Assembly: GCA_002393975.1 (NCBI GenBank)
Contig: DGSM01000045.1
Span: forward strand, 1 to 48,722
Source of the DNA: Clostridiales bacterium UBA4362
GTDB taxonomy: Bacteria > Bacillota > Clostridia > TANB77 > CAG-508
Direction: 5' to 3'
DNA length: 48,722 bases
Under the pieces are notes generated by a model. That model did not search any database. It was not told the DNA's origin and saw nothing but the letters and a program-made list of their open reading frames with translations. A program made the position numbers and the translations under genes. Shown in pieces: positions 25,142 to 28,566 of this stretch. The stretch's first letter is position 1. Each line of letters begins with the position of its first letter.

Positions 25142-27364
25142 CTATATATTAGTTTTTATCAAATCTATTTTTAATACATTGATATCGAAATCATTCTTTT
25201 CGATTATAATGTAAATATTTTTTGGTTTTGTTTCTACGCTTGCTTTTACCTTTATTATTACTTCTGTTTCTTCATCCATTCCTGAAGGTAATGTTTTATT
25301 GAAATTGTCATAGAAAATTATGTTTGTAAGATAGATTAAATGTTTTTCTGAATTAATATCTATCATTCCAATTTTAGGATTCTCAGATGAACTATTTTGA
25401 ACAATCTTTAATGGATCCATATTTCCTATTACATATTTCTCAAAATCTGACTTTACATCTTCTGTTGAATCTATATTGTAATAAACCGGTATTTCTGCAA
25501 TAGCGGTTATCTTGTTATAAGCTTCATTTAGATATTTTATACATTCTTTAATTTTTTCTCTATATTCATCTATTGTTGTTTTCTTATTGAACTTTAATGA
25601 TGAATATAATTCTCTTTGATTTTCTCTATGTTCATTAGCTTTTAACTTCTTTAACTTAGTAAAATCATCTTGAATATTTCCTAATATTTCTTGTCTAATA
25701 TCTATATTACAATTTAGCTTTAGTTCCTCATATTGACTTTCGATTATCTTATCTAGTTCTTCTTTAATCTCAGGTTCTAATTTGTCTTCTTGTGATAATT
25801 TATCTTCAAGTATTAAAGCATTTATTGTTGACATACAAAATCTTGCAATAAAGACTGCTTTTTGTTCTTCTGTTGAAAGTTTTCTTCTTACTAAGTTGTC
25901 ACAATCTATTTTCAAATCTTGCATTTCTGTATTTAAATCATATGTTTTCAAAAGAGATGGCCTTTGTGTTTCTTCTTCTCCTTCTATTCCTTGTTCTAAA
26001 GCTGTTAGCTCATCTTTATTGGCAAATTTCCAAAATTCGAATATTGATTTCTTATGCTCTTCAATTTCATTTATGTATTTTTGAGCATTTTCAATTTTCT
26101 TTTCAAGATTTACCTTCTTTAATTGTGTAACTTTTAAATCAGCTTCAGAATTTTTTAAGTCATTTTCTGCCTTTGAAGAATCTATGCAAGCTTTAACTAA
26201 ATCTTCTATTGTCGAATTGTAATGTCTTAAGTCATCTTCCTCTTCGACTTTCTTTTTAGGTTCTTCCTTTTCTTTTTCTTTCGGAATTTCTATTTTAAAT
26301 CTTTGGCCTTTTTTTAGATAATATTTTAATTTTCCAAAGAAGCTTTTTCTACAATCTAAGAATAAAACAATTTGTTTTTCTAGCATTAAGTATGTTTCTT
26401 TTTTTAGTTTTATTTCTTCATTAAGTTTTTCATTTTGTTCTTTTATTTCTTTCATTGTTTTGTTGAAATCTGCTATCATTTGTTCTTTTGCATTTATTTG
26501 TTTTTCAATAAACTTTGAAAGATTATCAATTGTGATTTCTTCTTCTTTATAGCAATAGCCCAATCTTCCTTCTTTTGTGATTATTGGAGTAATGCTTTCT
26601 CTATAATTTGTTTGTGTTTCCAAAATAAATAATGCTTTTGTCAATGTATAAAATTCAAGTGCTTCATCTCTATTGTTTAACTCTATTTTGTATTTGCTCT
26701 TGAATCCACCATATACTCGAGTGCTTCCAATAATAGATAAGTTAGTATGTTTCTTTCTTGTAACTTCTATAGTAGTTGGCCACTCTTTAGTAAATAACCA
26801 AATATAATTTTCCAAATCAGTATTTTCAGAAAAAGTAAGAATATCCGATGATGGTTCTTGTAAACATATTGGAACAAATATCTTTTTGTTATTTCCAGAA
26901 AGCTTTTCTTTAATTAAATAAAACAAAGCTGATGAATTACCTTCCATTGATGGATATAACATAAAATATTTTTTATCTTCTTCTGAATAAAAGATTTGCC
27001 ATAAATAATTTTTAGGATATTTAATAAAATATGGTGTGTTTTTATTTAACTTTTCACATAGTTCACCTATCTCTTTTATTTGAGCTACGCTTGTCTCATT
27101 GATTATCTTTTCAAATTTGTCTTTAAAGTTTGTTATATAATCTTTCAATGAAATTGCTTTTCTATGTCTTTCTGAAATTTCTGTGGTTCTATCTGTATCA
27201 GAAATAAAGATTTCTATCTCATTTACTGGAATTTCTCTATATACCTTATAAAGTCCTGAATCATCATATGATTTTGCTGCTTTATACTTTGGTTTTGAGT
27301 ATTCTAGAAAGCGAGGCATTTTATTCAATTTTAAGCCGACATATTTTAAGACTTCGTCAGACAA
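25142..27364 (-). CDS. Orphan cytoplasmic protein (740 aa) with a central coiled-coil region
   Basis: Long ORF whose start overlaps the ThrRS-like stop by 19 nt. The central ~300 aa are heptad-like and K/E-rich (EQMIADFNKTMKEIKEQNEKLNEEIKLKKE...). The N- and C-terminal globular parts match no family I know. Confidence 0.8.
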   Translation of the reverse strand: MSDEVLKYVGLKLNKMPRFLEYSKPKYKAAKSYDDSGLYKVYREIPVNEIEIFISDTDRTTEISERHRKAISLKDYITNFKDKFEKIINETSVAQIKEIGELCEKLNKNTPYFIKYPKNYLWQIFYSEEDKKYFMLYPSMEGNSSALFYLIKEKLSGNNKKIFVPICLQEPSSDILTFSENTDLENYIWLFTKEWPTTIEVTRKKHTNLSIIGSTRVYGGFKSKYKIELNNRDEALEFYTLTKALFILETQTNYRESITPIITKEGRLGYCYKEEEITIDNLSKFIEKQINAKEQMIADFNKTMKEIKEQNEKLNEEIKLKKETYLMLEKQIVLFLDCRKSFFGKLKYYLKKGQRFKIEIPKEKEKEEPKKKVEEEDDLRHYNSTIEDLVKACIDSSKAENDLKNSEADLKVTQLKKVNLEKKIENAQKYINEIEEHKKSIFEFWKFANKDELTALEQGIEGEEETQRPSLLKTYDLNTEMQDLKIDCDNLVRRKLSTEEQKAVFIARFCMSTINALILEDKLSQEDKLEPEIKEELDKIIESQYEELKLNCNIDIRQEILGNIQDDFTKLKKLKANEHRENQRELYSSLKFNKKTTIDEYREKIKECIKYLNEAYNKITAIAEIPVYYNIDSTEDVKSDFEKYVIGNMDPLKIVQNSSSENPKIGMIDINSEKHLIYLTNIIFYDNFNKTLPSGMDEETEVIIKVKASVETKPKNIYIIIEKNDFDINVLKIDLIKTNI

Positions 27365-28566
27365 TTTTTAACCTCCTTAATAAAATCCTCTAGATTCATA
27401 CTATTTGTTGAATCCCCTTTTCTAACTTGTATGTTTTTGTTTTGATATTCTTTTTTTCCAATGGTTATGATATATGGAACTTTTAAATCTACAGCTCTAT
27501 ATAGTTTATTTTGAAAGTTACTAGAAGCATTATCAACATTTACTCTAATGCCATTTTCAAAAAGTGTCCTTCTAACTGATTTCGCATAGTCTTCAAATTC
27601 TTCTCCTTCTGGAATTATTTCAACTTGTGTTGGTGCAATCCATAAAGGAAAATCTCCTTCATACTTTTCCAAAAGAATCATGACTATGTTCTCATAACTT
27701 CCAACTGTATTAACATGTGTATAAATTGGAAATTCTTCTTCATTGTTTTTGTTAATAAACTTCAAATCGAATCTATGTACAATTTCAAAGTCAACTTGTA
27801 TATTTGAAAGTTCTCTCTCATTGTATTTTATTGAAATTGATGGCCCATATAGACGAGCTTTCTTATTCTCAGTATATTTGATCTTCAAATCATTAAGCGT
27901 GTATTTCATAATATCAATTATTTCACGCCATTCTTCTATTTGTCCTATATAGTTTTCTTTTTCTTCATACTTCCAATTTTGTAATTCGTAAGATACATCT
28001 AGTCCTAATCTATCAAAAATTTCTTTTTGCATTATTATTAGATTTTTTAAATCTCTATCGAAGTATTCTTTATCAGAAAATACACTTGCATCAGATAATG
28101 TAAATTGTCTTGACTTAACAATTCCATTAGGATCTCTTTCGTTTCTAAAAACTGTAGATGTCTCACAATACTTTACTGGCATTTCTTTGTATGTATGCTG
28201 TTTAGTTGCATATATACTGCAATGAAAAGGTTGACTATAAGGCTTTAAAACTATTGTATTTTTTTCTTGTTCATTTTCATTGTTTGATTTGATAGTAAAA
28301 ATGTTATTTTTGATTAGTTGCAAACGATCCTCAATTGAGTATATTTCAGCTCTTGAAGCAGATGGAGTTCTAACAACTAAAAATCTATTTCTTTCTTCTT
28401 CATCTTCAACATAATTACGTATAGTTCTTATGATTTTTGCTCCATTAGGAAGAATAATAGGAAATCCTTTGCCTATATAATCTATAGTAGTATATATTTC
28501 AAGCTTTTGGGCAAGTTTATTAAGCTCTAAATTTTCCATTTTATTCCTTTCAAAATTAGTAGACAT
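27346..28566 (-). CDS. Truncated ThrRS paralogue (class II catalytic core plus anticodon-binding domain; no TGS or editing domains) with eroded active site
   Basis: It aligns block by block with residues ~255-650 of the bona fide ThrS in this window.
- GFPIILPNGAKI / GLPLLLPDGATI
- LKPYSQPFHCSIY / LRPMNCPHHMLVY
- VFRNE...KSRQFTLSDASVF / DFRYE...RVRQMTQNDSHLF
- PIYTHVNTVGSYENIVMILLEKYEGDFPLWIAP / [33 protein letters not shown]
- an anticodon-domain-like C-terminus

The likely true start is Met10 (ATG 28539..28537), which follows AAAGGA; the ATG at 28566 has no SD. Confidence 0.85.
   Translation of the reverse strand: MSTNFERNKMENLELNKLAQKLEIYTTIDYIGKGFPIILPNGAKIIRTIRNYVEDEEERNRFLVVRTPSASRAEIYSIEDRLQLIKNNIFTIKSNNENEQEKNTIVLKPYSQPFHCSIYATKQHTYKEMPVKYCETSTVFRNERDPNGIVKSRQFTLSDASVFSDKEYFDRDLKNLIIMQKEIFDRLGLDVSYELQNWKYEEKENYIGQIEEWREIIDIMKYTLNDLKIKYTENKKARLYGPSISIKYNERELSNIQVDFEIVHRFDLKFINKNNEEEFPIYTHVNTVGSYENIVMILLEKYEGDFPLWIAPTQVEIIPEGEEFEDYAKSVRRTLFENGIRVNVDNASSNFQNKLYRAVDLKVPYIITIGKKEYQNKNIQVRKGDSTNSMNLEDFIKEVKNCLTKS

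Follow-up and report, generated by a model that had tools for sequence, protein, structure and literature searches.

Repurposed paralogues of the aminoacyl-tRNA synthetases (aaRSs), such as HisZ, PoxA, GluQ-RS, SLIMP, and PolγB, are classic cases of the translation apparatus seeding new functions. PolγB (POLG2), the dimeric accessory subunit of mitochondrial DNA polymerase gamma, consists of a dead class IIa aaRS-like core and an HGTP-anticodon-like domain. In bacteria, the class IIa HisRS paralogue HisZ does not adenylate, retains its ligand pocket, and is a subunit of the adjacently encoded HisG (PMC9437257). SLIMP, an inactive SerRS paralogue of insect mitochondria, acts by protein contacts with its partners SerRS2 and LON, and several truncated synthetase cores (PoxA/EpmA, GluQ-RS, AsnA, and the amino acid:carrier-protein ligases) have been repurposed outside translation (PMC9437257). 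The cyanobacterial threonyl-tRNA synthetases (ThrRSs) T1 and T2 are reported to form hetero-oligomers (PMC4787780). The ThrRS duplicates given in a 2022 review of aaRS duplications are still-active enzymes only, namely cyanobacterial T2 and metazoan ThrRS-L (PMC9437257). The subject of the present analysis is a truncated ThrRS-like gene, hereafter the paralogue, on contig DGSM01000045.1 of Clostridiales bacterium UBA4362 (assembly GCA_002393975.1); the whole stretch analyzed, 48,722 nucleotides long, is called the window. The paralogue is read here as a ThrRS-derived pseudo-synthetase that would no longer aminoacylate and would act as a binding or regulatory subunit of P740, the 740-amino-acid (aa) protein encoded directly downstream. 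The probability of this reading is put at roughly 0.5.

The relationship of the paralogue to ThrRS is evident throughout its length. It shares 28% identity over 373 residues with the full-length thrS product of the window (BLASTP, E 1e-47), and Pfam recognizes tRNA-synt_2b (E 5e-22) and HGTP_anticodon (E 7e-18) in it, and neither the TGS domain nor the editing domain tRNA_SAD. A remnant of these domains farther upstream is impossible, because only 185 nt lie between the start of the open reading frame (ORF) at 28566 and the stop of the upstream gene at 28751. The best NCBIfam match of the paralogue is thrS (TIGR00418), at 276.5 bits and thus under the equivalog cut-off of 383.65; the window thrS scores 703.9 bits on the same model. 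The top match in the PDB is the Staphylococcus aureus ThrRS 1nyq (phmmer, E 3e-58), and an AlphaFold2 (AF2) model built from 37 family members (pLDDT 80.6, pTM 0.80) matches ThrRS structures with TM scores of 0.78-0.81 (Foldseek). Homology to the ThrRS core and anticodon-binding domain (ABD), without TGS and editing domains, had been proposed in a preliminary description of the window and is borne out by these comparisons.

The same description placed the gene at 27346..28566 and gave no strand. The 406-aa ORF is real and lies on the minus strand, but its start is most likely M10 (ATG at 28539) rather than M1, because the first nine residues are missing from all of the best 120 homologues and a Shine-Dalgarno (SD)-like sequence, AAAGGA, stands ahead of M10, with none ahead of M1. 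The longest ORF begins at M1, 27 nt upstream of M10 (28540..28566); no more than about 17-24 nt would separate M1 from the predicted -10 element.

The active site departs from that of ThrRS at most of the positions named in the preliminary description, and alignments made with BLASTP, HMMER, and MAFFT reproduced every substitution listed there (residue numbers follow the 406-aa ORF, and columns follow the Escherichia coli enzyme). In the window paralogue, the zinc ligands Cys334 and His385 are replaced by Gln112 (MNCPHH/YSQPFH) and Ser161 (NDSHLF/SDASVF), and the zinc ligand His511 is retained as His284 (IHRA/THVN). The motif-3 arginine, Arg520, which in ThrRS serves the ATP gamma-phosphate and adenine, is Asn293 (GSTERF/GSYENI), and the loop TSGHWDHY reads IEDRLQLI. 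Motif 2 (FRxE) is retained as FRNE, with both its Arg and its Glu.

These positions can be followed across a family defined as the best 120 homologues from a search of 5.8 billion proteins, to which the counts below refer. Family members are 369-449 aa long and have the same two domains, intact reading frames, and 47-99% identity; none is named. The column of Cys334 is unconstrained (Gln 42, Arg 23, Ser 14, Met 8, Lys 8, Tyr 7), whereas that of His385 is Ser in 119 of 120 members; His511 is kept in 106. At Arg520, Asn (74) and Ser (28) together make up 102 members, and Arg is found in 6. Lys465 is replaced by Ser or Ala, Gln381 by hydrophobic residues, and Met332 by Tyr (98 of 120), while Arg375 is variable and the aromatic character of Phe379 is found in just 49 members. 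The TSGHW loop is I-E-D-R (S to E, G to D, and H to R), its Asp present in all 120 members and its Arg in 119. The histidine lost from this loop corresponds to E. coli His309, a residue implicated in the aminoacyl-transfer step. The pocket residues that are kept include Arg363 and Glu365 of motif 2, Arg377, Asp383 (120 of 120), Tyr462, Gln484, His511, and Gly516-Ser517. A total of 41 positions are conserved in both the paralogue and the ThrRS families, among them the motif-2 Arg and Glu, Arg377, Asp383, His511, and Gly516. In the alignment of 37 family members, a new and nearly invariant cysteine (Cys116) directly follows an invariant histidine in the sequence PFHC. Throughout the family, then, three elements have been lost in concert: the zinc site, the contacts to the triphosphate, and the histidine of the transfer step. 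The earlier suggestion that the protein is a pseudo-synthetase, and not a second housekeeping or antibiotic-resistance ThrRS, finds support in the family-wide replacement of the zinc ligands, motif-3 Arg, Lys465, Gln381, and loop His, as it does in the score below the TIGR00418 cut-off.

The active site was originally called eroded, and in this respect the description was wrong. About 50 columns are invariant in the 37-sequence alignment, 49 of them in the catalytic core, and motif 1 (R-T-P-S) is conserved in the family. The ratio of nonsynonymous to synonymous substitutions (dN/dS) of the paralogue against two close relatives is 0.06-0.09, with dS near saturation, and is below that of three neighboring genes. 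Because the substitutions are fixed, new invariant residues (the D-R motif) have appeared, and dN/dS is this low, the pocket has been remodeled under selection and is not decaying. In the 22 genomes that carry both genes, the mean identity of the paralogue is 62% in the core and 51% in the ABD, as compared to 86% and 68% in the genuine ThrRS, and the ratio of ABD to core conservation is 0.83 for the paralogue and 0.79 for ThrRS. The paralogue therefore evolves faster than ThrRS, with an ABD constrained in proportion to its core. The core and ABD of the paralogue show no difference in net charge or pI from those of the genuine ThrRS.

The remodeled signature appears to be confined to this family. 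When 1.84 billion representative proteins were searched with a profile, the combination of Ser385 and EDR occurred, among the best 150 matches, solely in the family's own four representatives. ThrRS-like proteins of similar length (about 400 aa) outside the family have retained Cys/His/His/Arg and SGH. Separately, several full-length ThrRS-like proteins of about 590-640 aa (P0335, P0365, P0275, P0276, and P0327) have altered zinc-ligand or motif-3 columns (e.g., M/Y/R, Y/T/K, or Lys at motif 3), and these may be independent changes of the ThrRS active site.

The association with P740 is the most constant feature of the surroundings of the paralogue. A P740 homologue lies directly downstream in 43 of 43 genome loci, all of them in metagenome-assembled genomes (MAGs) of uncultured Clostridia or Bacillota (e.g., Clostridium sp. 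CAG:793), and in 12 of 12 paralogue-bearing metagenome loci. Across the 56 loci examined, P740 follows the paralogue without exception, and these loci often share no further neighbor. An overlap of exactly 19 nt, with AGGAGG in the 3' end of the paralogue, joins the two genes in 26 of these loci, and in 21 others they are no more than 60 nt apart. The 19-nt overlap noted for the window is likewise real (27346..27364); a strong SD sequence, AAGGAGG (27378..27372), lies within the paralogue, 7 nt ahead of the TTG start codon of P740 (27364..27362). Genuine thrS is found just upstream of the pair in about 27 of the 43 genome loci, yet is missing from the flanks of many others (e.g., L003/L004 and L016-L021), where it is not within 8-10 kb. 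Because P740 is always adjacent and thrS is absent from many flanks, the paralogue travels with P740 and not with thrS.

The wider neighborhood is a different matter. Among the loci examined, the 569-aa, giant, and amylase genes accompany the pair in L007, L169, and L170, the three closest relatives, and in no others, and the arrangement of the 569-aa and giant genes is a genus-level addition. The preliminary description had the paralogue recruited to an island, at the head of a giant-adhesin operon, and tied to both the 740-aa and the 569-aa genes. The first part holds for this one genus-level lineage only; of the two linkages, that with the 740-aa gene stands in 56 of 56 loci, and that with the 569-aa and giant genes fails. 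Two local irregularities were seen in other loci. In L001, L002, and L017 (MAG MGBC142777 and relatives), two ORFs take the place of thrS, a TGS part of 170 aa and a core of 457 aa, and P740 is likewise divided in two (216 and 552 aa); these may be genuine frameshifts or splits, or else errors of assembly. In L108 and L115, the inserts between thrS and P740 include a 102-aa ORF starting MKLDIRVGTIVKA and then a 174-aa ORF; the first may resemble a CsaA/EMAP-type tRNA-binding domain, and the second looks by eye like a hypoxanthine phosphoribosyltransferase.

P740 itself has more than 2000 homologues; all are unnamed, and Pfam recognizes no domain in any of them. The protein is cytoplasmic and has no hydrophobic segments. 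In its AF2 model (pLDDT 82), alpha/beta domains form the N-terminal end (about residues 1-280) and the C-terminal end (570-740). Between them come a long antiparallel coiled coil (282-338 and 386-439), some of whose residues are invariant (NA..Y..EI..HKKSIFEFWKF.NKDEL), and a helical domain (481-565). Searches of Pfam (E<=1, with 40 members), PHROGs, PDB profiles, and NCBIfam assigned P740 to no sequence family, returning only coiled-coil noise and a GGDEF-like match (E 0.12) that was rejected, the GGDEF motif being missing. The idea that P740 is half of a split ThrRS was also rejected (hhalign probability of P740 against ThrRS, 0.1). PADLOC matched no known defense system to the paralogue, P740, the 569-aa protein (P569), or the small neighbors, and tblastn gave no match to P740 in phage and plasmid collections. 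Foldseek found nothing significant for P740 in the PDB or BFVD. ADP-ribosyltransferase (ART) domains nevertheless headed the weak matches in both libraries, namely Certhrax 4fk7 (E 0.079, probability 0.94) and SpvB (E 0.37) in the PDB and, in the viral library, a Cedratvirus ART-domain protein (E 0.038, probability 0.98), together with a siphovirus "minor capsid protein." No clear R-S-E or H-Y-E triad was assignable, and an ART-like fold in the P740 model is a lead only.

The distribution of thrS around P740 suggests how the pair may have arisen. Lineages that do not have the paralogue carry full-length thrS immediately ahead of P740, an order seen, among others, in 33 of 70 informative metagenome loci, and in a neighbor-joining (NJ) tree of P740 the paralogue-linked copies form one contiguous group. 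The simplest history starts from an ancestral adjacency of thrS and P740; a tandem duplication, most likely a single one, would have placed a copy of the thrS core and ABD between the two, with the genuine thrS as its likely source. The duplicated copy would then have become translationally coupled to P740 and been fixed once, within one clade of low-GC gut Clostridia that are uncultured. When the ThrRS sequences are placed in an NJ tree, the paralogues fall on a long branch outside all ThrRSs, probably an artifact, and the tree does not confirm local duplication; the mean identity of the paralogue is 31.9% to the co-resident ThrRS and 30.5% to other ThrRSs, a marginal difference. Because of this long branch and marginal difference, the case for a local tandem origin rests on synteny and not on phylogeny.

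In the reading favored here, the paralogue has lost the residues for Thr-AMP synthesis and tRNA charging and keeps the class II fold, a strongly conserved, remodeled ligand pocket, and a constrained ABD. Parallels to the proposed role are HisZ with HisG, SLIMP with SerRS2/LON, and PolγB with Polγ. The paralogue would be co-translated with P740 and would form a physical complex with it, and it would recognize a small ligand, perhaps amino acid- or nucleotide-like, and/or a tRNA-like RNA.

Several observations count against this reading. Part of the pocket (residues 59-112) is poorly defined in the paralogue model. The motif-3 column is still Arg in 6 and Lys in 5 family members, and because of these few retained residues and the new cysteine in PFHC, the family may have an alternative metal or ATP site. 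The linkage to P740 could partly reflect inherited synteny, as the loci all come from related MAGs of one order. P740 stands without a ThrRS-type neighbor in 25 of the 70 informative metagenome loci, with other genes between and sometimes with thrS 2-3 kb off, so that a ThrRS-like partner in cis is not a strict requirement for it. Lastly, one thrS-adjacent subclade without the paralogue is nested inside the paralogue-bearing clade of P740. This subclade comprises metagenome loci L089, L090, L091, L094, and L104, in which full-length thrS lies directly upstream of P740; its position suggests secondary loss of the paralogue, perhaps through its recombination with thrS.

One alternative, possible if on the unlikely side, is that the paralogue has remained an enzyme but works on a different substrate, bound in the remodeled pocket (Tyr110, Asp80-Arg81, Ser161, Ser243, Asn293, and Cys116), with a new chemistry. 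It might catalyze a transfer that is ATP-independent or that depends on aminoacyl-tRNA or adenylate, possibly onto P740 or a substrate of P740; PoxA/EpmA, GluQ-RS, and the amino acid:carrier-protein ligases would be its parallels. Such an activity would fit the observations that the active-site motifs, and not the ABD, are the most conserved part of the protein, that the replacement residues are themselves fixed, and that the motif-2 Arg and Glu (contacts of the alpha-phosphate and adenine) are retained along with Asp383, Tyr462, and Gln484; the invariant Arg81 of the active-site loop could also stand in for the motif-3 Arg. However, several ATP-binding positions are lost together (motif-3 Arg and Lys465, with Arg375 variable and the aromatic at Phe379 mostly gone), and the conserved neighbors of the paralogue in the loci examined include no gene of carrier-protein, EF-P-like, or biosynthetic type. 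To our knowledge, the well-characterized catalytic aaRS paralogues all keep motifs 2 and 3, which also weighs against this alternative.

It is unlikely, though conceivable, that the paralogue and P740 constitute a new two-component system in which a ThrRS-derived module recognizes tRNA-Thr, an aminoacyl or nucleotide ligand, or ThrRS itself on behalf of an effector that may be enzymatic, given the weak ART-like signal in P740. If so, the genuine ThrRS would moonlight with P740 in the sister lineages, and duplication would have split this role off into a dedicated paralogue.

A distinctly improbable explanation is that the paralogue forms heterodimers with full-length ThrRS through the class II interface and modulates its activity, editing, or localization, with the linkage to P740 being secondary. 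In its favor are the conservation of motif 1 and of the core fold, and the presence of thrS close by on the upstream side in some 27 of the 43 genome loci. Precedents exist in SLIMP with SerRS2 (PMC9437257) and in cyanobacterial T1/T2 (PMC4787780). The position of P740, always adjacent while thrS is often more than 8-10 kb away, speaks against heterodimers with ThrRS, and the conservation of the pocket would be left unexplained.

The preliminary description also raised the idea of an RNA-binding regulator, which the analysis does not support. In this explanation, the paralogue would be a translational or transcriptional autoregulator whose ABD binds a tRNA-like operator. E. coli ThrRS autoregulates, using its N-terminal domain to block the ribosome; this domain is absent from the paralogue. 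The ABD is constrained in proportion to the core, and the equivalent of Glu600 ("GK.E") and several basic positions are kept, but the equivalents of Asn575 and Arg609, anticodon contacts in the E. coli complex, are not conserved. A gathering scan of the whole window found no Rfam family, and none was found at 27300-32900 even at E<=1, so no T-box, operator-like element, or other structured RNA family is seen there. The 5' untranslated region is short, with about 45-50 nt between the predicted -10 and M10, and the conserved catalytic pocket would again have no explanation. Autoregulation is thus a very improbable role for the paralogue.

Finally, a decaying thrS duplicate or a second functional or antibiotic-resistant ThrRS, to which a truncated tandem copy near thrS and the few members with a motif-3 Arg or Lys might point, appears from the sequences to be effectively excluded: decay by the intact frame in the best 120 homologues, the invariant columns, and the low dN/dS; an active enzyme by the family-wide loss of two zinc ligands, the motif-3 Arg, and the loop His and by the sub-cut-off score; and a truncated but active form (such as the editing-domain-less ThrRS-cat type or a borrelidin or obafluorin self-resistance copy) by other ThrRSs of about 400 aa, which, unlike the family, keep C/H/H/R and SGH.

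The features of the locus are collected in the table. In minus-strand order, the genes are polC, a 106-aa membrane ORF, thrS, the alpha-amylase-family gene, the paralogue, P740, and the 569-aa and 3174-aa genes, and downstream of the last are several SipW-type signal peptidase genes and ORFs with no assigned family. The GC content of the window is 29.6%, its flanks are housekeeping genes (hrcA-grpE-dnaK-dnaJ, ychF, and pyrH-frr-uppS-cdsA-polC), and ARAGORN found no tRNA genes in it.

Table. Positions of the paralogue, its conserved partner, and other features of the window
Feature	Position (strand)	Remarks
ThrRS-like paralogue, coding sequence	27346..28539 (-)	397 aa from M10 (probable start); longest ORF 406 aa, to 28566; homology, fold, and start-codon evidence
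P740, conserved partner gene, 740 aa	25142..27364 (-)	Directly downstream of the paralogue
Translational-coupling junction	27346..27378 (-)	SD and TTG start of P740 inside the 3' end of the paralogue
Sigma-A-type promoter-like region	28585..28612 (-)	Consensus matches only
Intrinsic terminator of the upstream alpha-amylase-family gene	28719..28747 (-)	
Alpha-amylase-family gene	28751..30277 (-)	Between thrS and the paralogue
Genuine full-length thrS	30378..32336 (-)	652 aa; TGS, tRNA_SAD, core, and ABD; every catalytic residue present
polC	32785..37299 (-)	
Gene for 569-aa cytoplasmic protein (P569)	23415..25124 (-)	Lineage-specific, outside the conserved module
Gene for 3174-aa secreted G/T/N/S/Y-rich protein	13852..23376 (-)	Lineage-specific, outside the conserved module

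With the alpha-amylase-family gene closed by the intrinsic terminator, a new transcription unit begins with the paralogue. The promoter-like region holds an extended -10 match, TGTTATAAT, at 28598..28590, and a second, overlapping match to the consensus, TTTAAA-16-TACAAT. No terminator-like site occurs on the minus strand between 28719 and 22500, and in the window the paralogue leads a tightly spaced, terminator-free run of genes that reaches the 3174-aa ORF.

The 3174-aa protein has an N-terminal hydrophobic segment (a signal or an anchor). It has no Pfam domain, and its label as a giant adhesin is unverified. Its gene heads a large, mostly minus-strand block (1..23376) with no Pfam or NCBIfam family, in which at least four SipW/S24-type signal-peptidase-like genes are found (13274..13828; 10969..11622, a weak case; 9759..10373; and the C-terminal half of 3026..4366). 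From its sequence, the block looks like a SipW-dependent surface-fiber or adhesin island. Ahead of thrS, the intergenic region is only about 107 nt long and no T-box leader was found at 32336..32444 (Rfam, E<=1), which is unusual for Bacillota. A terminator-like hairpin at 32416..32388 (minus strand), 52 nt ahead of the thrS start, may be the terminator of the preceding 106-aa gene.

As compared to known systems, the paralogue most resembles in form the truncated ThrRS core and ABD of E. coli (residues 242-642; PDB 1evk/1evl), which has the same two-domain architecture and fold and, as a deltaN construct, the same boundary. It differs from ThrRS proper (TIGR00418) in failing the equivalog cut-off, in its zinc site and motif 3, in having no TGS or editing domain, and in its faster evolution. 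The paralogue belongs to a known general kind, the repurposed aaRS paralogue. No published description of its family, or of such a bacterial ThrRS paralogue, was found in the literature searched, reviews included. The proposal, if correct, would add to this kind a bacterial ThrRS-derived pseudo-synthetase with an apparent single origin, a dismantled zinc site, a new invariant loop motif, and a translationally coupled partner. The paralogue provides a handle on the function of the orphan P740 family in abundant, uncultured gut Clostridia, and is a natural experiment in what a ThrRS core can do without zinc, with the practical limit that there is no cultured host.

Among the repurposed paralogues, the catalytic ones retain the ATP motifs and adenylation, most without an ABD, whereas the family described here has lost the motif-3 Arg and keeps its ABD. 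SLIMP and the T1/T2 pair are, like the paralogue, synthetase duplicates in which aminoacylation has been lost or changed; yet SLIMP is eukaryotic, T2 is cyanobacterial and still an active ThrRS, and the paralogue is linked to P740 and not to thrS. PolγB, in contrast, is eukaryotic, has a GlyRS/ProRS-like ancestry, and has a known partner and function. HisZ derives from HisRS and has a known biosynthetic partner, the ATP-phosphoribosyltransferase HisG, whereas the paralogue derives from ThrRS and is paired with P740, a protein with no known domain. HisZ is nevertheless the functional model for the present proposal; the proposed resemblance is one of function only, drawn from the loss of ATP contacts beside a conserved pocket in the sequence and from the strict adjacency to P740.

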